The notes under the pieces are model-generated. The model saw only the letters and a list, made by a program, of their open reading frames with translations. It was not told where the DNA came from and ran no database searches. A stretch of DNA of 64,000 nucleotides from Promethearchaeota archaeon (lineage in GTDB: Archaea > Asgardarchaeota > Lokiarchaeia > Sigyniarchaeales > SOKP01), in contig JBHLON010000012.1 of the NCBI GenBank assembly GCA_048940445.1, positions 1 to 64,000 of the forward strand, in the 5' to 3' direction. Below are positions 3,514-35,145 of the stretch, one piece after another. A program made the position numbers and the translations under genes. Position 1 is the stretch's first letter; every line of letters begins with the position of its first letter.

Positions 3514-4635
3514 TCATGTTTTTAGGATATTATTCTTTCTTTGTTTTATTCTGTCAAATAGATCATCCATAGTTGGAAATGGAGTAAATTGTTTGCCTTT
3601 CTTTTTTAATTCAATTGCTTCTGAAGGACATTTTACAACGCAATTTCCACATCCAATACATCGTTTTTGAATTATTAAGGACAGGTCATTTTCCAAAATT
3701 ATTGCTTTCATTGGGCATATTTCTCTACAAGTCCCGCAACTTGTACAGAGCTCAGGATTTACTTCAGCATAATAATTTGAAATTGTTAGGTGTCCTGGAT
3801 TTGGAAACTTTACAATTCGAGATAGTGATTCACAGCAACAACTACAGCAACTACAAATAAAGGTTAATTGTTGAGAATTATCTGGTTGAAGGACTAATCC
3901 ATCTTCTTGATTTTGTATTAAAATCTGTAATGATTCTTCTCGAGTTATTTCACGTCCCCAACCCTGTTCTATATAAAGTTTGGCTCCAAAACCGAACCCA
4001 AGGCAAAGTTCTCTCCGTGAAGTAACTTTACATGGTTTTTCCATAATATCTTTCATTTGCTTACAAATACAATTAGTAACCATAAAAGGACCTTCAGTAG
4101 TTTCTATAAGTTTTATTAAGTCATCATAAAAGCTGACATTTTGTTCAATGTTGACACTTTTTTCAACTGGTATTGTTCTTAATTGAGCACCCTTTACCCT
4201 AAATGCTTCTTTTAGCCATCCTTCATCAAAATAATCATGAAAATCTTTAATGAACTCTTTAGGAAATTTATCCAATTTATTTACTTGGAATTCAAAGATT
4301 CCAACCATTAATAGAGCATTTCCGTAGAACTTAATACCATTTTCTTTTTTGAATATAATCAAACCTTTTTTAGCCATGTTATCAAGCTTCTGCTTTAAAT
4401 CTTCCTTTGAAATTTCTTTGCTATTTACGCGTTCGAATATTTTATCCAACGTTTCAAGATCACGGTTCCACCCAAATTTTAATAACATAGCAGTTTCAGC
4501 TTCTTCAGGATTAAATAGATGTTTTAAAAGTCGTATATCTGATCCTGATTTTGTTCGTGGAAACCCAATAGGCATTTTATCAAAATGTACTTGAAGTCTT
4601 CTATAGACGTCTATTTCATCTGTATTTGAACTCAT
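3514..4635 (-). CDS. Multi-Fe-S protein: N-terminal helical/wHTH-like region, Cys-rich core, C-terminal 2x[4Fe-4S] ferredoxin domain
   Basis: CICK, CLGFG, CSCCSCCC, CTSCGTCREICP, CIGCGNCVVKCP. Confidence 0.85.
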   Translation of the reverse strand: MSSNTDEIDVYRRLQVHFDKMPIGFPRTKSGSDIRLLKHLFNPEEAETAMLLKFGWNRDLETLDKIFERVNSKEISKEDLKQKLDNMAKKGLIIFKKENGIKFYGNALLMVGIFEFQVNKLDKFPKEFIKDFHDYFDEGWLKEAFRVKGAQLRTIPVEKSVNIEQNVSFYDDLIKLIETTEGPFMVTNCICKQMKDIMEKPCKVTSRRELCLGFGFGAKLYIEQGWGREITREESLQILIQNQEDGLVLQPDNSQQLTFICSCCSCCCESLSRIVKFPNPGHLTISNYYAEVNPELCTSCGTCREICPMKAIILENDLSLIIQKRCIGCGNCVVKCPSEAIELKKKGKQFTPFPTMDDLFDRIKQRKNNILKT

Positions 4636-4946
4636 ATTTAGGTTCTTAATTCTTTTTTATGTAATAAATAATTGAATGATGAAATATTTCCAAACTTAAA
4701 TTCATTTTTCATTCTTTTGAACCACTCAAGCTTTATTAAAAATTATAAAATGTCATTTCTAGAAATATTAGATATTGGATAGGTTTATGAAAAGATAAAG
4801 ATCAAGAGATAAAAAATATAATTTCAATGTTTAAATCTTTGATAAAGGTAATAAAATATCGTTATTGAACGAATAAAAAAAAAATTTAAAATTTTTTTGA
4901 ATTATACATATAATTTTTTGTTCTATCCTTTTTTCCTGGGAATTGA

Positions 4947-5633
4947 TTATCCTGTAGAATTAGATACCTTTGAAGGCGTTATAGTTGTCCTTCTTTTTCT
5001 TCTTCTGACGACTACAATTATTATCGTAACTACCACTATTACTGCTACTACACCAATTACAATTCCTATGATCATGAATATAAACATAGGATCCCAATCA
5101 AAATTTGCTGTCGTGCTATAAGAATCAATCACATCAAATTCTGAACTGGTTAAATGGTAATCAAATTCAATATTCATAGAAACAGGAAATAAATCCTTAT
5201 GTACGTAGAATTCAAAAATTTCGAATTCATAAATTACATCACCTGTTTGCATGAAACTACTGGTATCAGCATCAGATCCTGAATCCATAGTATTAAAACC
5301 CGAAGCAGAAATTGTTATATCATAACTTAAAGAGGCACTTAGTGACGTAACATAATATTCATTCAGTGTTATAACAAAAACATCTATCGTGAATCTTTTG
5401 TAAGTATCGTTGTATTTTTCGAACATACCGCCAAAATACACCGCATATTGAATTGATTGATTATTAAAAGTAAAAGAAAACGCCTCCATCTGATCATAAA
5501 TTCCTTGGCCTGCGTTTTTATAATCATCGCGGCTTTTATATGCCATACAAACCATCGCTCCATTTATTTGAACAAGAAAAATAAATAAAACAATCAGGAG
5601 AATTTTCGCTTTTTTTTTCATACTCCACATCAT
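4947..5633 (-). CDS. Hypothetical cell-surface protein (signal peptide, beta-rich domain, C-terminal TM anchor, basic tail)
   Basis: Hydrophobic N-terminus; IFMIIGIVIGVVAVIVVVTIIIVVV followed by RRRKRR. Confidence 0.7.
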   Translation of the reverse strand: MMWSMKKKAKILLIVLFIFLVQINGAMVCMAYKSRDDYKNAGQGIYDQMEAFSFTFNNQSIQYAVYFGGMFEKYNDTYKRFTIDVFVITLNEYYVTSLSASLSYDITISASGFNTMDSGSDADTSSFMQTGDVIYEFEIFEFYVHKDLFPVSMNIEFDYHLTSSEFDVIDSYSTTANFDWDPMFIFMIIGIVIGVVAVIVVVTIIIVVVRRRKRRTTITPSKVSNSTG

Positions 5634-5862
5634 ACTATCAAATAATTAAAAATTTCATAAAGTAAACATTTGTTACTAAATTTCAAAAATTTATAATTGA
5701 AACTTTGATTCTTAATGCTTAAATATTTTTACTAAAAAGTAAGAATGTATGGGGAGATTTTATTTTAAAAATCAATTTAATATCATTAGAAATTAGAATA
5801 TTTAAATTTCATTCAATTTTAACTCACTTTTATAAATTAAAGATTTAATTTGGTGATTAAAA

Positions 5863-6399
5863 ATAACACGAAAAAGACTGAAAATTGGTCTGGTACAAGT
5901 TTATTTTGGAAGAGGTAAGGGAAAGACTACGGCTGCATTAGGTCAAGGTTTTCGTGCCACCGGGCATGGTTTCAGAGTTTTCATGATTCAATTCATGAAA
6001 GGTTGGGATAAGTATGGAGAAGTGAAAGCAATCAAAAGTATAGCAAATTTCGAGCTCAAACAGTTTGGAACACCTGAACTAATCTCTGAACCTAGAGAAA
6101 TCGATTATAAGGAAGCTAAAAAGGCATTAAAATTTGCTGAGGAAATTATTATGAGTGATGAATATGATATTGTAATTTTAGATGAGATTGGTGTTGCTAT
6201 TGAATATAAATTGATTGAGGTTGAAGATGTATTAAGATTAATAAATCAAAAACCTGAAAAGGTTGAATTAATATTAACAGGAGGTCCTAACATGCATCCA
6301 TTGATTAAAGAAAGATCTGATCTATTAACTGAAATGAGGATGATTAAACATTATTACTCTTCAAAAGGTATCACTGCTAGGTTAGGGATTGAATATTAA
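5863..6399 (+). CDS. cobO: Cob(I)alamin adenosyltransferase, CobA/CobO/BtuR family; start extended to ATA 5863
   Basis: In-frame sequence upstream of ATG 5983 encodes GLVQVYFGRGKGKTTAALG (P-loop); then IQFMKG, YDIVILDEI, ELILTG, GIEY; GGTGA RBS before ATA. Confidence 0.9.
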   Translation: MTRKRLKIGLVQVYFGRGKGKTTAALGQGFRATGHGFRVFMIQFMKGWDKYGEVKAIKSIANFELKQFGTPELISEPREIDYKEAKKALKFAEEIIMSDEYDIVILDEIGVAIEYKLIEVEDVLRLINQKPEKVELILTGGPNMHPLIKERSDLLTEMRMIKHYYSSKGITARLGIEY

Positions 6400-7192
6400 T
6401 AAAAATATATTGAAAAAAATGAATATTGATAATCTATATAGGGAAATTACGAGTGATCTAGAAAAGGAAGCAGTAGGTAAGTTCGAATCAAAGGAAGAAT
6501 ATTTAAGTTGGAATCAAAAAGTATTTGATGAACATGGATATAGAGCTTACAACTTAAGTGTACCTGAAATAGATAATATTGTTACCAAATATTGCAACCA
6601 ATTCAAAATGCTTCCTTTTGATGAAAGATTAGAATTATCACATAAATTTTACAAATCAGGATATATCGGACAAACAAGTTTTGGACTACAACTTCTAAGA
6701 AGTAGTATACAACAATTAACCCCTAAAAATTTCGATTATCTTGATGAAATTATTAGCAATTTTACTGGTTGGGGTCCAACAGATTCGTTTTCACTCTATA
6801 TAATGCAACCTTTATTAATGAAATATCCTAATGAAGTAAAAAAATTATTAGAGAAATGGAATAAATCTCAACATAAATGGAAAAAGCGGGCAAGTGTCGT
6901 TGTCTTTACAAGGAAAGTAGGAGCTAGTGGTGAATATGCAGATTATCTCCTAAAGTTGTGTGATAATTTAATATGGGATAAGGAGGATTTAGTAAGAAAA
7001 GCAGTTGGTTGGGCACTTAAAGATAATATGGTTGGCATAAATAAAGAAAAAATTTTAAATTATATAAAAAAATTGAGAGAAATGGGTGTATCATCAACCA
7101 TTACCCTTTATGCAATTCGAAAATTAAAAGGAAAGGAAAGAGAAGAAATCTTAAAAGTAAAACCAAAAAGTAAATCAAAAAAAAAATTATAG
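6389..7192 (+). CDS. DNA alkylation repair protein (AlkD-like HEAT-repeat family)
   Basis: W..TD, W..S...WKKRA, DKEDLVRKAVGWALK. Confidence 0.8.
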   Translation: MNINKNILKKMNIDNLYREITSDLEKEAVGKFESKEEYLSWNQKVFDEHGYRAYNLSVPEIDNIVTKYCNQFKMLPFDERLELSHKFYKSGYIGQTSFGLQLLRSSIQQLTPKNFDYLDEIISNFTGWGPTDSFSLYIMQPLLMKYPNEVKKLLEKWNKSQHKWKKRASVVVFTRKVGASGEYADYLLKLCDNLIWDKEDLVRKAVGWALKDNMVGINKEKILNYIKKLREMGVSSTITLYAIRKLKGKEREEILKVKPKSKSKKKL

Positions 7193-7213
7193 AAATATAA
7201 CTTATCTAATAAT

Positions 7214-7579
7214 ATGAAAGAAAAAGTTGAAGATATATTAATTGCCTATTGTGGTATTGATTGTGGAAGTTGTGATATTTACCTTGCTCCCTCTAATCCT
7301 AAAATTGCTAAACAATTAGCAAGAGCATTTGAAGGAGCATGGGAAAATGTTAGACCAGGCGATTTTTCTTGTAAAACATGTAGAGGCCCGATTAATGATT
7401 GTTGGAGTACAGAGTGTTGGATTCGAGACTGTTGCTCCAAGACAAAAAATTTGAACTATTGTTACGAATGTACAGAGTTCCCTTGCGCCAATCTAGAGAA
7501 ATGGGCTTCAAAAAGTAAAGGTTACAGAAAAGCTTTTAATAGACTCCAGAAAATGAAAGAATCGACTTCTAAATCATAG
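7214..7579 (+). CDS. DUF3795 family Cys-rich protein
   Basis: AYCGIDCGSC, CKTCR, C.IRDCC, YCYECTEFPC. Confidence 0.85.
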   Translation: MKEKVEDILIAYCGIDCGSCDIYLAPSNPKIAKQLARAFEGAWENVRPGDFSCKTCRGPINDCWSTECWIRDCCSKTKNLNYCYECTEFPCANLEKWASKSKGYRKAFNRLQKMKESTSKS

Positions 7580-8003
7580 AAGTCTTATCAGATAAAAAAA
7601 CGATTAAATATTAAGATTCCACCCATATTAAGTAGAATTAAGGTAATACTTCGATTAACATTATGTCAGAAATACCACCAACTAAATTGTTTATGAGTCC
7701 GATTATGACTATAATAATTCCTACTAAAATCCATTGTATTCTTATTTGAGTTTTAGAAAAACGTACAAAAAATTCATGAGTTAATTATTAAAAATTGCGA
7801 AGAAAAAGGACTTTAATATAAAATAACGTTGAATCTATAAAAGGCCTCTACTGCTAATATTTTTATAAGCTTTATTGAAATTCCTAACTCTCATTTGGAT
7901 GATATATCAGTTTTAAGTATGAATAATAAAAAATAAAAAAATTCGACAATTCAATTTAATTAATTCTAAATTAATTCATAAACATTAAGAATGTGAGAAA
8001 TAA

Positions 8004-24057: not shown

Positions 24058-24342
24058 TTAATGAAGCTCTAATTTAAGATTATCTATTAGAGATGCTAAA
24101 TATTGAGCCTTGAATGATTCTTTATCTTCTATTTCATCATAAACTCTCATATATTCATTTAGTTCTTCTTGTTTTTCAATAAATTCTAATTCAAGATATC
24201 CTGTGGATAATTCAATAAAAAATTGTTCGCAAGAATCATCCAAATCTTTTTGTTCAACTTTATCTAAACTCTTTACAACAATTTCCATTAAAATCACATC
24301 CATTTTAGAAAGTAATTTTGTTTTATCCAAGTAAATAACCAT
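24058..24342 (-). CDS. Small acidic helical-hairpin protein homologous to part of the 28572-29189 protein
   Basis: GYLELEFIEKQEELNEYMRVYDEIEDKESFKAQYLASLIDNL aligns without gaps to GYLYQEIVEKQQLQTELFEEYEKMNDKESYKGLSLKNWIDML. Confidence 0.75.
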   Translation of the reverse strand: MVIYLDKTKLLSKMDVILMEIVVKSLDKVEQKDLDDSCEQFFIELSTGYLELEFIEKQEELNEYMRVYDEIEDKESFKAQYLASLIDNLKLELH

Positions 24343-24451
24343 TCTCTCTAAATTTAAAAAATTTGATAAGAAGATTTTTTATTATTTTGATAAATTTTTT
24401 TATCAAAATTAGTTCTTAATAATTTTTTTTAAAAGTAAAATAAGAACAGTA

Positions 24452-26761
<2,310 letters not shown>

Positions 26762-26789: not shown

Positions 26790-27785
26790 TTACTTTTTAA
26801 GTATCTCTGTAGCTATTTTAAAAGCATAATTATAATCAAATACCTTTAATCCCTTTGTTTTTGAGGCTTCTTTTAAGATTTGGCTCTCTGAATTTGCTTT
26901 CAAGGCGCCTAATGCCAGCGCACCTATACAAAATATTCCAGGATAAACCTCATCGTTTTTATGTTTAGGCCTTACACCTTCAATACCATAAGGAGGAACT
27001 AAATTAATATCAACTACAATTTTTTTACCAGATAATTTTTGCATCAAATCTGCATTTAATATTTCAACACCAGCAGCAGCAAGAGACCAAATAACAAGGG
27101 CATCTTTCGCCGCTTCAAATCTTTGTTCTGGTTCTGGTGCAAACACTCCATGAATTTTTGTTGCTTCTTTCCCAGCTTCTGCAGTAAGTTCGTTTGCTAG
27201 CGTATTCACAAAATCCTTATTTGATTTTTCCCACGTTTCTACTATGTATGTTTTACAGCCTATCTTGGCTGCTAAAATTGCTGCAATTCTTCCAACTGGT
27301 CCTGCCCCAAAAATCACTATTTTTTTATCTTTTAAACTTTTTATTCCATGTTTTCTATTAGCGATATCTATGGTCATAGCCACAACCGCGGAAGCTGTAG
27401 TATGAGAACCTCTAGGATCAATAATAATTGGGCATTCAAAAGGAGGCACTAATGAGTCTTTTACAGTTTTAGCAATTTTTTCCCCTTCTTTAACATCTGA
27501 CCCTCCAATAAAGAAAGCGGTGGGAGCATTGGGTTTTCTAGAAAATATTGCATCCTGTACAAGCTTGGGAACATAATCTGCTTTCATTTTACTCAACGGT
27601 ATAACAATATCAAAACCAGCATCGTATGCCATATTTATATCAAAAGGAGAAGCATTCTCATCTGTATCGAAAAAATAGCATATTTTATCAGATGTATCTT
27701 GTTTTTTAATAATAATTGGAGCTAATTCTATAATAGATTTTTTTCCTAAAATACTTTCAGCACTTCTATCAACCATTTTCATCAA
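26790..27785 (-). CDS. NAD(P)-dependent methylene-H4MPT/H4F dehydrogenase, MtdA/MtdB family
   Basis: SPFDINMAYDAG, QDAIFSR, FIGG, DP.GS.TTA.A, GAGPVG, DINLVPPYGIEGV, GALALG.LK. Confidence 0.85.
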   Translation of the reverse strand: MMKMVDRSAESILGKKSIIELAPIIIKKQDTSDKICYFFDTDENASPFDINMAYDAGFDIVIPLSKMKADYVPKLVQDAIFSRKPNAPTAFFIGGSDVKEGEKIAKTVKDSLVPPFECPIIIDPRGSHTTASAVVAMTIDIANRKHGIKSLKDKKIVIFGAGPVGRIAAILAAKIGCKTYIVETWEKSNKDFVNTLANELTAEAGKEATKIHGVFAPEPEQRFEAAKDALVIWSLAAAGVEILNADLMQKLSGKKIVVDINLVPPYGIEGVRPKHKNDEVYPGIFCIGALALGALKANSESQILKEASKTKGLKVFDYNYAFKIATEILKK

Positions 27786-27822: not shown

Positions 27823-28554
27823 TTATTTAGAGATGTCAATTTCAACATCTTTTTCGAGATCTTTTTCAATTTCTTCAGTTCTAATGGTTCTCTTGATCTT
27901 AATTTGTTCCGTTTCAATACCTAATTCTTCTGATAATTTTTCAATCCCATTAAAGTGTCGAAGATCACAGATAAACATCCCTTTCAATTTTTTACCACTT
28001 TTTTCCTTTGCAAGATTTAATACATTCATCATCATCCAGGCTTCTCTTACTTTATACCTTATATCATCCTCTTGATTATCATAATCCTTCTGTAAATATT
28101 CTTTCCATAATATTAACTGTTGAAATAATTCATCATTTTCAGGAACTTTTCCTTGTTTTTTAATTATTTCTCTAATTTTTAATTCAAGATTTTTAATTGT
28201 AGATCTATGTTCGTCTAAGGCTGAAGAAAGATATAATTCAGCATTTTCTGCTATATCAGCACGTTTGAAAGAAATATTTCGTTTCTCAAATAGTTTTTTC
28301 AAAGGATCATTTGGGTCATTTACATTATTCCAAAAATTTGGTCTCTCTTCTACTGCAAAATCTGGTTTATACTTCTCAATCAATGAATCAACTAATTGAA
28401 GATATTCTTTTGAAATTAAGTGAAGATTCCATATAAGATCTTCTTTAATCTCATTAGGTACTTCAAACCACCAGTCTATTGGGAATTCACTTTCAATCAT
28501 TACTAATTTTAAATATTTTTCTTTTAAAGGTTTTAATTCTAACACTTCTGGCAT
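27823..28554 (-). CDS. Hypothetical protein, probable TraB/Tiki(EreA)-like alpha/beta fold with helical-hairpin insert
   Basis: KPDFAVEE, ADI, VREAWM...KGMFICDLRHFNGIEKL echoes the TraB R..xM...VVGAGH..GI pattern; paralogue of the upstream gene. Confidence 0.6.
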   Translation of the reverse strand: MPEVLELKPLKEKYLKLVMIESEFPIDWWFEVPNEIKEDLIWNLHLISKEYLQLVDSLIEKYKPDFAVEERPNFWNNVNDPNDPLKKLFEKRNISFKRADIAENAELYLSSALDEHRSTIKNLELKIREIIKKQGKVPENDELFQQLILWKEYLQKDYDNQEDDIRYKVREAWMMMNVLNLAKEKSGKKLKGMFICDLRHFNGIEKLSEELGIETEQIKIKRTIRTEEIEKDLEKDVEIDISK

Positions 28555-28571: not shown

Positions 28572-29189
28572 TTAAAATATTATATTTTGTATTGTATGTT
28601 TTTTATTATAGGAAATTACTTTTACACCTAATTCCCTCAAATTACTGGTAACTTCAGGGCAAATATCTTCACAAATATCTTCTTGAACAAAATGCACAAA
28701 CACAATTATATTTTTTTCGTAGTTGGATACTAAATCTAACATTTTCTTAACAATCCATTGAGGTCTCAATTTTAGACTTAGAAATATTTCTTTTTCCTGA
28801 ATCTCTTCTCCTAACATGTCAATCCAATTCTTTAAACTGAGTCCTTTATAGGATTCTTTGTCGTTCATTTTTTCATATTCTTCAAATAATTCTGTTTGTA
28901 ATTGTTGTTTTTCAACAATTTCTTGATATAGATAACCCATCGCATAATCTGGAATATCAACTTGAAAATAGGGGATTTTTAGTTCATTTAATGTTAGAGC
29001 AAATGGTGTTTTACTAAATTCTTTCATATTAACCTGAAAATCTACCGTTACAAAATCAACGTTGTTCTTTTTTAAAAATTCTCTTAACTTAGACGTGTCT
29101 TTATTTTGAAAATACTTCGCATTTTCTTTTGAGGAAATATAGGCAACAATTTTTCTATTTTTTATAGGCTTTAATTCCAAAACTTCCAC
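28572..29189 (-). CDS. Hypothetical protein, degenerate paralogue of 27823-28554; start revised to GTG 29189
   Basis: GAGGTG RBS 9 nt before GTG; N-terminus MEVLELKPIK matches MPEVLELKPLK; shared DF, P...L....I.....DI...A..YL, K.R..W, ELG. Confidence 0.65.
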   Translation of the reverse strand: MEVLELKPIKNRKIVAYISSKENAKYFQNKDTSKLREFLKKNNVDFVTVDFQVNMKEFSKTPFALTLNELKIPYFQVDIPDYAMGYLYQEIVEKQQLQTELFEEYEKMNDKESYKGLSLKNWIDMLGEEIQEKEIFLSLKLRPQWIVKKMLDLVSNYEKNIIVFVHFVQEDICEDICPEVTSNLRELGVKVISYNKKHTIQNIIF

Positions 29190-29257: not shown

Positions 29258-29345
29258 AAGAGTTTGACAAGAAAATTTTCTTATAATTTGATAATTTTTT
29301 TAGTCAAGAACTCTTCAAACAAAATTTTTGTTGTTATATATAAAA
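29258..29345. promoter_or_regulatory. Part of a divergent promoter region with palindromes and a TATA-like box
   Basis: AAGAAAATTTTCTT (29269-29282) and AACAAAA-T-TTTTGTT (29318-29332) palindromes, the second beside TTATATATAAAA; the AT-rich background lowers significance. Confidence 0.35.
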
Positions 29346-29516
29346 TCGATAATTCTATGACTAATATCGCCATTTTATATAATGAAGAGGAAAAGTCTAA
29401 TGATCAAATCCTAACAAAGTTTAAATAGATCGATAACTATCATTATCATGAAGAGAAATAAAATTGTCAAATTTGAAAATTAACAAAAATAATAATCAAA
29501 TAAAGAGGGGAAGTAA

Positions 29517-32063
29517 ATAGATATATACAACATCTTATCCCATCCTGTCCGAAGGAAAATTTTATTATTATTAGAAAAAGAAGGGTTTATCCCATATACA
29601 GAGCTAATGGAAAAAATGGGGATAGATCAAACGGGTCAATTAAATTTCCATCTAAAGAAGTTAGGGTCCTTAATAAATAAAGATAAAAAATCTTACTTTT
29701 TAACTGAAGATGGCAAAAGAATTTTAAGGATTATGAATGTAAGTAAACGCATCTTAGCAGGTGAAGAGATAGAATACTTAGATAAAAAAGGAAGCGAAAT
29801 CAATCGCGTAGGAGTGATCTTATGCAGTTGTAACACTGAAATTTCTAATATAATAAATATTAATGCCTTGGAAAGTCAAATTGAGAATTTAGATGGTGTA
29901 GTTTCAGTAAAGGTTTTTGATAATTTATGTCAAGAAAAAAATTTGAATAAAATAACAAATTGGATAAAGGAGAACTTTTTAAACAAAGTAGTTATAGCAG
30001 CTTGTTCACCTAAAACACATCAGCACATTTTTGAGCGGATTTTTAAAAATGTAATTGATAGTGCTAATATTGAAATAGCCAATATTAGAGAGCAATGTTG
30101 TTGGGTTCATCATTCAAATAATCAGCAATTTGATCCTTTATTGGCGTTAAAAAAGGCGAATTTGTTAATTGAAGCTGCAGTCGAACGCGTGAGACTTCAA
30201 AAAGAAGTTAAAATAAAAACAGTAGAAGTTGAAAAAAGTTGTGCTATTTTAGGAGGCGGTATTGCCGGTATGACATTAGCCTTAAATCTTTCCCGGGCAG
30301 GGATTAAAGTATATTTAATTGAAAAATCACCTACACTAGGCGGGAAAGTAGCCAGATGGCATCGTATTTCTAACATGGGTGACTGTTCTATATGCTTTAT
30401 TTCTGAATTAATTGGTGAAATAGTAAAAGAAAAAAATATCGAAATTTTAACTAATACTGAAATAGAAACGGTTTCTGGAGAGGTAGGAAATTTTACTTTA
30501 GATTTAATCAAGAAACCGAGATTTGTAGATGAGAAAAAATGTACCGGCTGTAAACAATGTATAAATGTATGTGGGAAAGAAAAAAGAAATCAATACGAAT
30601 TTGATTTAACCTCTCGAAAAATAATATATATCCCCTTCCAGAATTCATATCCATATGTTCCTCTAATTGACGAGGAAGATATTAATGATTGTTTAAATTG
30701 TAGAATATGTGAACGAGTTTGTATTAATAAAGCAATAAACCTAAACGAAAAAGTTGAAAAAATTCGAATTAAAGTTGGAGCGAAAGTTATTGCAATAGGT
30801 GCTGACCTTTATTCGAATTTAACAAAATATTTATATAATCCTCAAAAAGATATTATCACTTCCTCTGAATTTGAGAGAATTTTATCTTCAGATGGTATTA
30901 CAGAAGGAAAATTAGTGAGATTATCTGATAAGAAACTGATAAATTCCGTTTCAATTGTTCAAGAAGTTGGTCCATCTAAATATCTAGCAGAATATTCAGA
31001 AATTTTAGCGCAAAAATATATAGAGGATATTAAAATAAGAAGCCCTGACTGTGAAGTAAACGTTTTTTATGATTTAAGTAAATTAAAAAATAAAAATGAA
31101 ATTTTACTGCGATCAACTAATCCAAGATTTCTCTATGCTAATAATGTTACCATTGAAACTAATGGTACAATGAACTATGTTGTTGCCGATAATATTGAAT
31201 TTCCGAGCGATCTGATAGTTTTAAATCTTAAGTATATTCCTAATAAAGATCTAAAAGTTTTACGGAGGTTCATGGATTTTACATTGAACGATTTCGGTTT
31301 TATGAGCGAGGAAACACTAGCATCAGGTATTTATGGAATTGGAACAATATTTGGCCCTTTAAACTACCAATCGACTCTTTCTACTGCAAATATCGTAGCG
31401 CTAAAAGTCATTTCTCTCCTCTCAAATGATTATTTATTAGCTGAATTTACTGGAATTGAAATTAATGAAGAAAAATGTGGTTTATGCGGTTTATGTGAAA
31501 AAGCATGTCCTTATAATGCGATAACGATTGAATCAAATAAGATTAATATTGATAAATTTAAATGTAAAGGTTGTGGTACATGCGCAAGTGTATGTTCTAC
31601 TAACGCTATTGAAATGAATATAGATACTTCAGAAAAGATTTTAAAAACTATCGAGGTTTATTCAAAATTTAGTAAAAGTCCTAAAATTATCGCTTTTTGT
31701 TGTTATTCTTGCGGTTATGCTGCTGCTGATGATGCAGGTCTTAAAAAGGAGTTATATCAACCAAATATTTTCGTTATACGTATTCCATGTACGGGAAGAT
31801 TGGATACTGAATTCATATTTAAATCATTTGAAGCAGGATTTGATGGAGTAATGGTGATAGGATGCAGGAAAGATGCTTGTAGATATATTGATGGAATTGA
31901 AAAGGCACAAAAAAAAATATCACTCATTAAAAAGATATTAAATCCAAAATATAGCAACCGAATTATATTTAAAAACTTAAATGCTGTAGAGGGTCATAAA
32001 TTTGCAGAAATTGCGAATAAATTTTATAATATTTTAAAGGAGGGGGCTATAAATCAAACTTAA
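29517..32063 (+). CDS. hdrA: Fusion protein: ArsR-type winged HTH + degenerate HdrA + MvhD; start extended to ATA 29517
   Basis: MDIYNILSHPVRRKILLLL...YTELMEKMGI.QTGQLNFHLKKL...YFLTEDGK (wHTH); VGVILCSC, AACSP, ANIREQCCWVH, GGGIAG, four CxxCxxC...C motifs, FER; C-terminal FCCYSCGYAAAD..G, PCTGR, GFDGV...GC...C.Y (MvhD). Confidence 0.9.
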   Translation: MDIYNILSHPVRRKILLLLEKEGFIPYTELMEKMGIDQTGQLNFHLKKLGSLINKDKKSYFLTEDGKRILRIMNVSKRILAGEEIEYLDKKGSEINRVGVILCSCNTEISNIININALESQIENLDGVVSVKVFDNLCQEKNLNKITNWIKENFLNKVVIAACSPKTHQHIFERIFKNVIDSANIEIANIREQCCWVHHSNNQQFDPLLALKKANLLIEAAVERVRLQKEVKIKTVEVEKSCAILGGGIAGMTLALNLSRAGIKVYLIEKSPTLGGKVARWHRISNMGDCSICFISELIGEIVKEKNIEILTNTEIETVSGEVGNFTLDLIKKPRFVDEKKCTGCKQCINVCGKEKRNQYEFDLTSRKIIYIPFQNSYPYVPLIDEEDINDCLNCRICERVCINKAINLNEKVEKIRIKVGAKVIAIGADLYSNLTKYLYNPQKDIITSSEFERILSSDGITEGKLVRLSDKKLINSVSIVQEVGPSKYLAEYSEILAQKYIEDIKIRSPDCEVNVFYDLSKLKNKNEILLRSTNPRFLYANNVTIETNGTMNYVVADNIEFPSDLIVLNLKYIPNKDLKVLRRFMDFTLNDFGFMSEETLASGIYGIGTIFGPLNYQSTLSTANIVALKVISLLSNDYLLAEFTGIEINEEKCGLCGLCEKACPYNAITIESNKINIDKFKCKGCGTCASVCSTNAIEMNIDTSEKILKTIEVYSKFSKSPKIIAFCCYSCGYAAADDAGLKKELYQPNIFVIRIPCTGRLDTEFIFKSFEAGFDGVMVIGCRKDACRYIDGIEKAQKKISLIKKILNPKYSNRIIFKNLNAVEGHKFAEIANKFYNILKEGAINQT

Positions 32064-32799
32064 GTTTATTATTGCTTCGTTAACCTCATGCAGTGGATGT
32101 ATATCAACATTAATTTCATTGGATATGTTTTCTCAATTTCTAGAAAAAATTGAAATCTCTTTTTTTCCATTTATTTCAGATCAAAATGAATTAATTGACT
32201 CTGATGTCGCATTAATAGAGGGTTGTATTTCAGAAGCTAATCAAATAGAAATATTGAAAAATATTAGAAAACATTCAAAAAAAGTTTATGCTTTAGGCAC
32301 TTGTGCTGCTTTTGGGGGGATTTTAGGGTTATCTAAAAGAAAAGATTCTGATCCAATCTTAAAATTTATAGAAATTGATGGATTTATCCCTGGATGTCCT
32401 CCTCCAACAAACTTATTAGGAAATTCCTTAATGAGACTAATAGAAAATAAAAGTATAATTCTTTCTGAAAAAAATATGTGCGCCTCTTGTCCACGTAAAG
32501 GAGAAATGCATCTTAATTCTCAAATAACAAAGCTTAATCCTTCTAATTCTGAAATAATGTCTAATAAACGAGAATGTTTTTTAAATAATGGGATCTTATG
32601 TTTAGGGCCAATTACTCGAGAAGGATGTGATAATAAATGTATAGAACTGGGATTACCATGCGAAGGATGTTTAGGTCCTCCTTCAAAGCAGTACACATCA
32701 AATCTTATAAATTTCTTGAGTCTGGTTCCTCTTTCTAATAAATTAAAGAAATATCCAGGAATCTTTTATAGATTTTCAAAGCCGACATTAAAAAGGTGA
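32053..32799 (+). CDS. mvhG: [NiFe]-hydrogenase small subunit, MvhG-like; start extended to ATC 32053
   Basis: Upstream in-frame MKLKFIIASLTSCSGC; EG, GTCAAFGG, PGCPP, CASCPR, CFL..G.LCLGPITREGC...C....PCEGC.GP. Confidence 0.85.
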   Translation: MKLKFIIASLTSCSGCISTLISLDMFSQFLEKIEISFFPFISDQNELIDSDVALIEGCISEANQIEILKNIRKHSKKVYALGTCAAFGGILGLSKRKDSDPILKFIEIDGFIPGCPPPTNLLGNSLMRLIENKSIILSEKNMCASCPRKGEMHLNSQITKLNPSNSEIMSNKRECFLNNGILCLGPITREGCDNKCIELGLPCEGCLGPPSKQYTSNLINFLSLVPLSNKLKKYPGIFYRFSKPTLKR

Positions 32800-34103
32800 G
32801 AATAATTCAAAAGGTAATAAATGTATGTTCCAGAGTTGAGGGCCACGGTAAAGTTAGTTATTTCATACAAAATGATAATATTGATCATGTTGAATTTGAA
32901 ATTTCTGCATTTAGAGGATTCGAAAACATTTTGGTAGGTAAGAATTTAAAAGATATACCTAGAATTGTCTCGAGAATTTGTGGTTTGTGTCATGCTTCTC
33001 AAACAATTGCTAGTTGTAAAGCTATTGAAAAAATCTATGATATTCAACCCAGCTCTCAAGCTATTCTACTTAGAAAATTATTAATGACGGGGGAATTAAT
33101 CAAGTCTCATATTATGCATTTTTTCTTTCAATCACTACCTGATCTCTTAGAAATTTTTCAAATCTATAAAAGTGGGAGTAATTCATACAATTTGGTTAAG
33201 TTTGACCCACAATTGAGCAGTAATGTTTTTGACCTAATTAAAACAGGATCTGAATTAAACAATATTTTTGGAGGAAGAATAATCCATTTGATTACTCCTG
33301 TTCCAGGAGGAATTATCTATTATCCTTCAAAAAAGAATATTCTGCTCGCTCAAAAATATTTACAGAAATCCATATCTCATATTCAATACATTATTGATCG
33401 ATTTGTTGAATTATTCGCTTCTAAAATCCCTCCATATGAATTTAATCTAAATAAAACATCGTATTTAGGAATGCTAAATAAAGGAAAATATGATAGGTAT
33501 AATGGAACTCTAAATATATTACCGGTTAATATGAACAAATTAAATTTTGAAGTGAATGATTATAAAAACTATTTTGAAAAAGATTCTAATTTGTTTGGAA
33601 TTAAATTTTTATCAGATATAAAAAGCATTTTAACGGGACCGATTGCAAGATTCTATCTCATAAATAAAGATAATGAAATTAGAAGAAATGCTGTAATAGA
33701 TAACTTTGACACAGAGTGGAAAGAGAACATTTTATTTATGAACATTTTACAACTTGTCGAAGTCTTTAAAGAAGTAAATAATAGTATAGAGATATTAAAT
33801 AAACATAGTTTAGAAAATAAAGATACCCTCCCCTCTCTTAATACTATCATAAATCAGGAAGGTTTTGGGATTGTAGAAGCCCCACGTGGAACCCTTATAC
33901 ATCATTATCATCTAAATAAATCTAAAATAATTGATTGCGTTAAACTTTTTATAGCAACTGAAATAAATTTTCCTCTTTTAAATGAAAAAATTAAAAATTA
34001 TGCTCAAGAGTTATACAAAAAAGAAGACTTAGAATCAGTCAATAGAAAAGTTCAAATTTTGATAAGAGCTTTTGATCCATGTATCTCTTGTGCTACACAT
34101 TAG
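32796..34103 (+). CDS. mvhA: [NiFe]-hydrogenase large subunit, group 3/MvhA-like, with no C-terminal maturation extension
   Basis: RVEGHG, RGFE, SRICGLC..S, GP.AR, EAPRGTLIHHY, RAFDPCISCATH-stop. Confidence 0.9.
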   Translation: MRIIQKVINVCSRVEGHGKVSYFIQNDNIDHVEFEISAFRGFENILVGKNLKDIPRIVSRICGLCHASQTIASCKAIEKIYDIQPSSQAILLRKLLMTGELIKSHIMHFFFQSLPDLLEIFQIYKSGSNSYNLVKFDPQLSSNVFDLIKTGSELNNIFGGRIIHLITPVPGGIIYYPSKKNILLAQKYLQKSISHIQYIIDRFVELFASKIPPYEFNLNKTSYLGMLNKGKYDRYNGTLNILPVNMNKLNFEVNDYKNYFEKDSNLFGIKFLSDIKSILTGPIARFYLINKDNEIRRNAVIDNFDTEWKENILFMNILQLVEVFKEVNNSIEILNKHSLENKDTLPSLNTIINQEGFGIVEAPRGTLIHHYHLNKSKIIDCVKLFIATEINFPLLNEKIKNYAQELYKKEDLESVNRKVQILIRAFDPCISCATH

Positions 34104-34122: not shown

Positions 34123-35145
34123 ATGGATGATTTCAACCTGAATAAGCCAAAAGATGCTGTAGAGCCCGAACAACTATGTGAAATATTTCTACTCTACTTT
34201 GATGAAGAATATGGACCAATGCCTCTTCTTATCACTCCTGATGAGTCTCTAAAAGATGATGTTGATGTTATGCGTTTAATTAGAATTCATTCCATTTGGT
34301 TTCTTGATATAAGCGATCAAACATCTCCAGATCGTATGGATTTAGAGTATCAAAAAAAAATATATTTTGCAAAGAAATTTTTAGTACCATCCAAAAGAGA
34401 AAAAAGGCGTTCAGGTTCTGAAGGAGAAAGTTTCGAAACTCTTGTTTTAATCTTAGCTTTACCAGTTGATATGGATATCTTTGGAGGAGCACTTCTAAAA
34501 AGAATGGCAGAAAGAATAACAAAGCATTTTTCTTTTAAAATATCTCATCTAATAGATTCTGAAATAGCAAAAATGAAAGCGATAAAAATCCATACCACGA
34601 TACCACTACTTCAGATTGGAGATGCTATTAAAAAGCGAATAAAAGTTTTAATTAAAAACACATGTGTACAGTATTTCGATTCTGTCATTAAGAAAACTGA
34701 TTCTACAACTTTCAAACTTCAGAAAGCTATATCATACTTATCATTAAAGGGAGTTCCAATTAACTATATTGTTAGTGAAAAGGGAAATTTAGGTTTTTCA
34801 AACGTTAAACTGTTTGAATCAAAAGTTTTAGTAAATGATAAATATAAATTTGAAAAAAATTTTAAAATTATAAGCACAGATATAGATTCAGATACTCAAG
34901 AAGTTGAGATTTTAATTAAAAATCTTTCAATTAATGAATTTAGTAATCTCTATGTTAAAGTAATCTCTATTCAAGAATTCTTTGAAAGTGAAGTATTACG
35001 TGAAAAAATAGAAAAATGGCTTCCTGAAGAAGAGTTAATTATAATACTACCTTATGTACTCACAAACTTTGAATACTTCTTTTATATCTTTGATAGTCAC
35101 TCTAATCAGACTTTATTTAAGCAGAAGTTGCAACTACTAAATTAA
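34123..35145 (+). CDS. Longin/uDENN-like N-terminal domain protein with beta-rich C-terminal domain
   Basis: IFLLYFDEEYGP.PLL..P opening motif typical of uDENN/NPRL2/FLCN-type longins; YFAKKF..P and LVLILALP strands. Confidence 0.55.
   Translation: MDDFNLNKPKDAVEPEQLCEIFLLYFDEEYGPMPLLITPDESLKDDVDVMRLIRIHSIWFLDISDQTSPDRMDLEYQKKIYFAKKFLVPSKREKRRSGSEGESFETLVLILALPVDMDIFGGALLKRMAERITKHFSFKISHLIDSEIAKMKAIKIHTTIPLLQIGDAIKKRIKVLIKNTCVQYFDSVIKKTDSTTFKLQKAISYLSLKGVPINYIVSEKGNLGFSNVKLFESKVLVNDKYKFEKNFKIISTDIDSDTQEVEILIKNLSINEFSNLYVKVISIQEFFESEVLREKIEKWLPEEELIIILPYVLTNFEYFFYIFDSHSNQTLFKQKLQLLN

Follow-up and report, generated by a model that had tools for sequence, protein, structure and literature searches.

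A conserved, probably regulatory [NiFe] hydrogenase with a winged helix fused to HdrA in Asgard archaea

A winged-helix HdrA fusion beside known hydrogenases

Group 2b hydrogenases (HoxBC/HupUV) sense hydrogen (H2) together with the HoxJ kinase; they turn over slowly, stall in the Ni-C state and are insensitive to O2. PutA is a trigger enzyme whose DNA binding is under redox control. The sensory classes in HydDB are linked to kinases, cyclases, chemotaxis or phosphatases only. In MvhAGD-HdrABC of methanogens (group 3c; PDB 5ODC, 8RVU and 9SW2), the HA4 cluster of HdrA is the exit route to HdrB, by which the high-potential electron reaches HdrBC, and the HdrA N-terminal domain belongs to the mobile arm in the solved complexes (PMC12350162, PMC13580544). 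Here we describe a three-gene operon in the window, the whole stretch of 64,000 nucleotides analysed, which comes from a Promethearchaeota (Lokiarchaeial) genome of 3.64 Mb (93% complete) and has its nearest loci in Promethearchaeota metagenome-assembled genomes. On the plus strand the operon encodes a fusion of a winged helix-turn-helix (wHTH) to HdrA and MvhD (29517..32063; 848 amino acids), an MvhG-like small subunit (32053..32799), and a group-3 [NiFe] large subunit, MvhA (32805..34103). Judged from their sequences, these proteins form a complex that is real, conserved and probably regulatory, a putative one-component repressor-hydrogenase gated by H2 or redox state. We consider it fairly likely that the three genes encode a dimer, MvhAG-(MvhD-HdrA), which acts as a transcriptional repressor in its own right, with its DNA binding set by the H2/redox state.

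The complex has the subunit set, NiFe ligands, small-subunit clusters and MvhD of MvhAGD-HdrABC, together with the flavin adenine dinucleotide (FAD) motif, the Cys290/293 pair, Glu453, Lys500 and the HdrA fold. It differs in its N-terminal wHTH, the loss of HA4, the absence of hdrBC from the operon, a Gln in place of the L1 His, the lack of a large-subunit tail, an invariant Trp281, and a separate large-subunit clade. With the group 2b enzymes it shares the missing C-terminal extension, a Gln at L1 Cys+4 and, on our reading, a sensory role, but its ancestry lies in group 3, its DNA-binding output is fused, and it has no kinase. The NAD(P)-binding gamma and beta subunits of group 3b sulfhydrogenases are not in the operon, which has HdrA-MvhD instead. 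PutA-type trigger enzymes (PMC6978683), which repress their own operon, are likewise flavoproteins whose DNA-binding domain is N-terminal and whose operators lie in their own divergent promoter region, although the folds are unrelated and the input here would be H2, through the NiFe site and an Fe-S wire. The winged-helix fold, the conserved recognition helix and, if the palindrome described below is assigned correctly, a palindrome in its own promoter are shared with ArsR-like one-component repressors. The system would thus combine the workings of group 2b sensors with those of PutA-type trigger enzymes, yet it belongs to neither kind and lies outside canonical group 3c as well.

An earlier note, made from the DNA letters alone, had proposed an in-frame fusion of an ArsR-like winged helix to HdrA-MvhD, and the open reading frame and its domain matches confirm it. 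A DUF7347/HTH_20 winged helix spans residues 2-72, and the same reading frame continues into HdrA (96-713) and MvhD (720-842; FlpD/MvhD match 724-841), a [2Fe-2S] domain (31674..32042, plus strand) with its Cys conserved. The winged helix (29520..29756, plus strand) has its recognition helix at residues 39-52 and is followed by a flexible linker (82-94). In the AlphaFold model, a winged helix built of four helices is joined through that linker, modelled at low confidence, to a normal HdrA fold, with a template modelling (TM) score of ~0.8 to solved HdrA. Among homologues, wHTH residues G40, H45, K55 and Y60 are invariant and those of the recognition helix nearly so. The ratio of nonsynonymous to synonymous substitution rates (dN/dS) is 0.081 for the wHTH, equal to that of the FAD domain (0.083), and highest in the HdrA half that lost HA4, the most relaxed part (0.157). 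By this measure the wHTH is under the same constraint as the FAD domain, indicating that the fusion is conserved, intact and translated. A homodimer prediction for residues 1-230 scored 0.30 against a mark of 0.42 and was not used as evidence.

The HdrA cluster motif reported as lost in the earlier note proved to be HA4: the degenerate segment (residues 478-503; 30948..31025, plus strand) has none of the four Cys of canonical HdrA and keeps Lys500. All four are also missing in most Lokiarchaeia and retained in basal members. Invariant throughout the fusions are the FAD motif, Cys290/293, Glu453, Lys500, the N-terminal cluster and both ferredoxin domains. Trp281 (30357-30359), where ordinary HdrA has Leu or Phe, is also invariant in all fusions; it flanks the flavin-binding segment and may tune the flavin.

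The wHTH-HdrA junction was found in about 119 of 400 Asgard genomes, with 90 of 134 in the same family as the window and others in seven further families, and in one Bathyarchaeon, which makes the fusion ancient. In 32 species-level GTDB loci the three genes lie side by side, and the small and large subunits always lie 3' of the fusion wherever the contig extends far enough. The HdrA cores of all fusions are monophyletic and stand apart from ordinary HdrA in FastTree, the only method used for the trees in this work. Assembly artefact and decay were rejected as explanations of the fusion, which recurs in many loci with low dN/dS. A remnant, in which the wHTH alone is left before the frame is lost, stands behind a perfect operator at L135 (G278:C663:938-1212) and is, as its sequence reads, a recent loss of the system. 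Another copy (L147:5610-11770) lies amid V-ATPase genes; sites resembling the operator occur close to the start of the fusion and also between a divergent pair of ATP synthase K genes.

An operator palindrome and its predicted targets

Upstream of the fusions we found a palindrome, GAYAA-N6-TTRTC, with 28 perfect matches in 28 representative upstream regions against 0.2 in shuffles; any spacer other than 6 gave 0-2 perfect matches. In the window, operator 1 (29432..29447) is a perfect palindrome lying between the predicted TATA box of the hydrogenase operon (29420..29427, plus strand) and the predicted start site, 4 bp past the TATA box, which is kept in homologues 3-4 bp before this operator. 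Operator 2 (29453..29468), with one mismatch, follows 21 bp after operator 1. The operator of the divergent operon (29290..29305) lies downstream of a predicted TATA box at ~29337-29344 on the minus strand. Both the TATA-to-site distance and the 21-bp interval of the tandem sites are found again in genus after genus, a geometry that suggests repression. Because a matching site lies just behind both TATA boxes, the enzyme probably acts directly to switch its own operon and a carbon-metabolism operon in response to H2 or redox state.

A scoring matrix trained without the window's clade placed three of the five best non-coding sites of the genome at this locus. Eleven held-out loci, from two more Asgard families and the Bathyarchaeia, lay outside the matrix training, and their windows were set with gene positions known. 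In these loci, all 22 of the 22 sites scoring at least 14 fell ahead of the fusion or of up/mtd genes, a space that makes up 7% of the DNA, despite rearranged gene order. Where an FrhB-like gene is inserted before the fusion, the operator sites shift to the front of the inserted gene. In that genus (L008/L011/L013/L016, ~4300-7930) the inserted gene is FrhB/FpoF-like, and the operators stand between it and a divergent HdrA gene with in-frame TGA codons, probably for selenocysteine. Perfect sites number 3.5 per genome with the system and 2.2 without it, with controls at 1.1 and 1.3, a weak test since many residual matches are coding coincidences. Taken together, the pattern makes it very likely that the wHTH of the fusion binds this operator.

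The divergent operon, all on the minus strand, begins with up1 (28572..29189), an Mtd-associated protein with an alpha/beta part and a helical hairpin that is co-inherited with the hydrogenase, followed by its paralogue up2 (27823..28554) and an MtdA-like NAD(P)-dependent methylene-tetrahydromethanopterin dehydrogenase (26790..27782). These three genes travel with the hydrogenase operon in other orders and classes. A strong up1 match is present in 88 of 94 family genomes with the system and in 2 of 41 without it, counts that come from relatives and are not independent. The up1 and up2 proteins have one domain in common, which many archaea carry as a fusion with Mtd (TM 0.83), up2 itself being fused to Mtd in many relatives; up1 had no clear match in the PDB, its likeness to TraB reaching only TM 0.50. 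The earlier note had named a divergent mtd/cdc48 operon as the target. Its mtd part stands, up1/up2-mtd being the core and a likely direct target with which the operator co-travels, while Cdc48 (24452..26746, minus strand), co-directional with mtd and adjacent in only part of the family, is a clade-level neighbour that we rejected as a core target because it does not lie beside deep members. The strongest non-coding operator of the genome (24389..24404) stands ahead of a short up1 paralogue, a hairpin protein (24058..24375, minus strand). The regulon predicted from these sites is small. Distant up1 paralogues (L008:12975-15208, L013:13507-17516 and L107) stand first in operons that include a dihydrolipoamide-dehydrogenase-like gene; glutamate dehydrogenase is encoded nearby, and a strong operator is lacking.

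Hydrogenase subunits and gene starts

The ligands for three [4Fe-4S] clusters are invariant in the small subunit, with every cluster Cys kept in 47 of 47 homologues, and the large subunit has its four Ni/Fe Cys, the proton-transfer Glu and the canopy Arg intact. MvhA stops at the L2 His with the stop codon directly after, and so lacks the cleavable tail, as the earlier note had read; none of 120 close homologues has a C-terminal tail. Gln stands four residues past the second L1 Cys (33000..33002, plus strand), a feature of 117 of 118 homologues, and matches Q67 of HoxC in the alignment, whereas HoxG, the VhuA of the same genome and standard enzymes have His; a Gln at this position is characteristic of regulatory hydrogenases (PMC5665086). 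The large subunits form their own clade, apart from the long-tailed 3c enzymes and from VhuA (FastTree support 97-99), so the phylogeny that the earlier note had proposed as a check places MvhA outside canonical 3c; the clade may be one of the subgroups 3e-3l (bioRxiv 2024.07.04.601786). The likeness to group 2b is convergent, because the protein is only 20% identical to HoxC and groups with group 3.

No histidine kinase next to the operon is conserved across the compared loci. As had been noted for the window, hdrB/hdrC and a maturation protease are absent; HdrB-type (CCG) genes and the HycI protease are missing from the whole contig (C104) and occur elsewhere in the same genome. That genome also has a separate catalytic set, with a selenocysteine-type VhuA/VhuU with tail, VhuG and HdrCB, and hypDEF nearby. 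There, VhuA (G000:C47 25244-26584) is split from a small VhuU encoded by the short reading frame after it (L149), which has an in-frame TGA (selenocysteine) in the L2 motif and a cleavable tail, with hdrC and then hdrB directly 3'.

The start of the fusion is certain, being pinned to ATA 29517 by an in-frame TAA (29514-16) and a Shine-Dalgarno (SD) sequence (29505-10); the aligned codon is ATG in 36 of 48 homologues. The ATC start of mvhG is also certain, and mvhA begins at ATT 32805, where homologues align ATG, or at GTG 32796. The ATN starts that the earlier note had called weak are thus real and in no way special, about 94 of 406 SD-preceded candidates in the genome being of this kind (a rough count that includes false positives). 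We rejected them as evidence for a sensor, since they are a genome-wide habit and homologues mostly start with ATG or TTG. ATA, ATT or ATC behind a good SD is the apparent start of many genes in this genome, and annotation pipelines will therefore truncate such genes. The 340-amino-acid gene at 34123-35145, 19 bp 3' of mvhA, belongs to no Pfam family, and that neighbourhood is kept in only part of the family.

Competing explanations and a possible H2 switch

The main rival to an H2-gated repressor is a trigger enzyme in the narrower sense, a mainly metabolic H2:ferredoxin or H2:F420 oxidoreductase (in basal members with an HdrA that bifurcates normally) which shuts off its own genes when in excess or unassembled, without gating by H2. 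We think this improbable, though a serious contender. It would account for the purifying selection on all relay clusters and on the inserted ferredoxin domain, and for the FrhB-like gene under the same operators in one genus. It fits poorly with the Lokiarchaeial form, which lost HA4 and gained the Gln of regulatory hydrogenases (RH) while a separate catalytic Vhu-Hdr exists, and with the predicted operator at separate Mtd-linked genes.

Several observations count on the side of that rival, or at least against a sensor. The inserted ferredoxin domain is fully conserved, and turnover therefore continues. Deep family members keep HA4, the L1 His and tails of 3-11 residues, so that the sensor-type features (HA4 loss, Gln, tail loss) are derived and not family-wide; in the Bathyarchaeial copy HA4 is intact and hdrCB lies opposite, on the far side of the operator. 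Tail loss alone was rejected as a sign of a sensor, and the earlier note's use of it does not hold, since the catalytic groups 4c, 4e and 4g also contain tail-less large subunits (PMC7294309) and 19 His-type representatives likewise end at the L2 motif. In RH, the Gln of the Q67 type 'seems not to be involved in H2 sensing' (PMC5665086). No operator was found at the promoters of this genome's catalytic hydrogenase genes, its hyp genes or its remaining hdr genes (scores <=8), which differs from the targets of bacterial H2 sensors and led us to reject a genome-wide H2 regulon over vhu, hyp and hdr promoters here. One Asgard family (L076-L079) and L038 lack clear upstream sites, and in G257 (99% complete, 320 contigs) strong sites precede up1 and an FrhB/HdrA divergon, with no fusion found.

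Because deep members keep HA4, His and short tails, the wHTH and operator appear to have come first, and the loss of HA4, the Gln and the loss of the tail later and largely in Lokiarchaeia, an order read from the FastTree trees. The Lokiarchaeial enzyme seems to have drifted toward a dedicated sensor, and basal members have the look of working HdrA enzymes with a regulatory role besides. The association of the fusion with tail-less large subunits and missing hdrBC that had been suggested earlier accordingly holds in part: the fusion is recurrent and its close homologues are tail-less, whereas deep members have short tails and one faces hdrCB. In that Bathyarchaeial copy (L146:3273-5508), the genes across the operator encode DUF2096_N, DUF2096_N-HdrC and HdrB, and DUF2096_N genes occupy the same place in L090. 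The L076-L079 and L038 loci have HA4 intact and a large subunit without the terminal L2 His.

It is rather unlikely that another regulator binds the palindrome, with the wHTH a structural or protein-binding module. The sites in G257 would suit such a regulator, as would seven further DUF7347-like matches in the genome of the window; against it, the sites track the operon across Asgard families into the Bathyarchaeia, the recognition helix is near invariant, and the other wHTH proteins are at most 39% identical to that of the fusion.

The same three genes have been described before. NODE_1033 genes 29-31 of Seitz 2019, which lie on the contig of locus L022, are the 'possible energy-transferring complex' of Helarchaeota (PMC6478937). 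In Zhao and Biddle 2021 (PMC9723726), the large subunit is a divergent group 3b of Loki- and Helarchaeota, and the cultured MK-D1 has only a 3c enzyme. The portions of text and supplements of both papers that we searched make no mention of the wHTH, the HA4 loss, the Gln or the operator. A literature search that left subscription journals outside its coverage found nothing relevant on a wHTH-HdrA fusion. The membrane-associated energy-transferring complex proposed by Seitz 2019 for Helarchaeota is very improbable and was rejected: transmembrane predictions were reported there, but among 19-mers hydrophobicity peaks in the GxGxxG FAD strand-helix and a CxxC segment, at values no higher than in soluble paralogues, the model matches soluble HdrA, Zhao and Biddle also judged the proteins probably not membrane-bound, and the wHTH and operator would be left unexplained.

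The H2-gated repressor could work as follows. H2 would be oxidised at the NiFe site, with electrons passing from MvhG through MvhD to Cys290/293 and the FAD. With HA4 gone there would be no exit to HdrBC, and the complex would equilibrate slowly with ferredoxin through its retained ferredoxin domains. The wHTH, tethered by the 13-residue linker to the N-terminal domain of HdrA on the mobile arm, would be carried by a redox-dependent shift of that arm, which would decide whether two wHTHs grip the palindrome. As to the sign, our guess leans slightly toward the oxidised form binding and repressing, with release at high H2. Release would induce Mtd and, in one genus, also the FrhB-like gene and the selenocysteine HdrA genes as electron sinks. 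Of the kinase-free sensor put forward in the earlier note, the regulatory role is supported by the co-travelling operator, placed as for a repressor, by the sensor-type Gln and by the separate Vhu-Hdr; the arguments from ATN starts and from the tail do not hold. The signal may be H2 or the redox state of ferredoxin or F420, and the complex may be an enzyme as well as a sensor.

Whether the Lokiarchaeial complex has become a dedicated low-turnover sensor we put at slightly under even chances. With similar reserve, it could be the first [NiFe] hydrogenase of an archaeon to sense H2 and the first H2 sensor of the one-component type, one in which the conformational gate of a bifurcating machine was made into a transcription switch and which converged on group 2b hallmarks. 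We found no H2 sensor described for Asgard archaea in the literature. Genome papers have treated the 'divergent group 3b' hydrogenase of Loki- and Helarchaeota as metabolic capacity, a reading that would be revised, and the family would preserve the stages between an intact HdrA that also regulates and a streamlined sensor. Both the physiology of Asgard archaea and models of how eukaryotes arose give a central place to H2 exchange with partners. With a protein, a 16-bp operator and a small set of predicted target genes now named, H2 sensing in Asgard archaea becomes a testable question, and, if the proposal is true, a syntrophic Asgard archaeon could read its partner's H2 uptake and retune its C1 metabolism.

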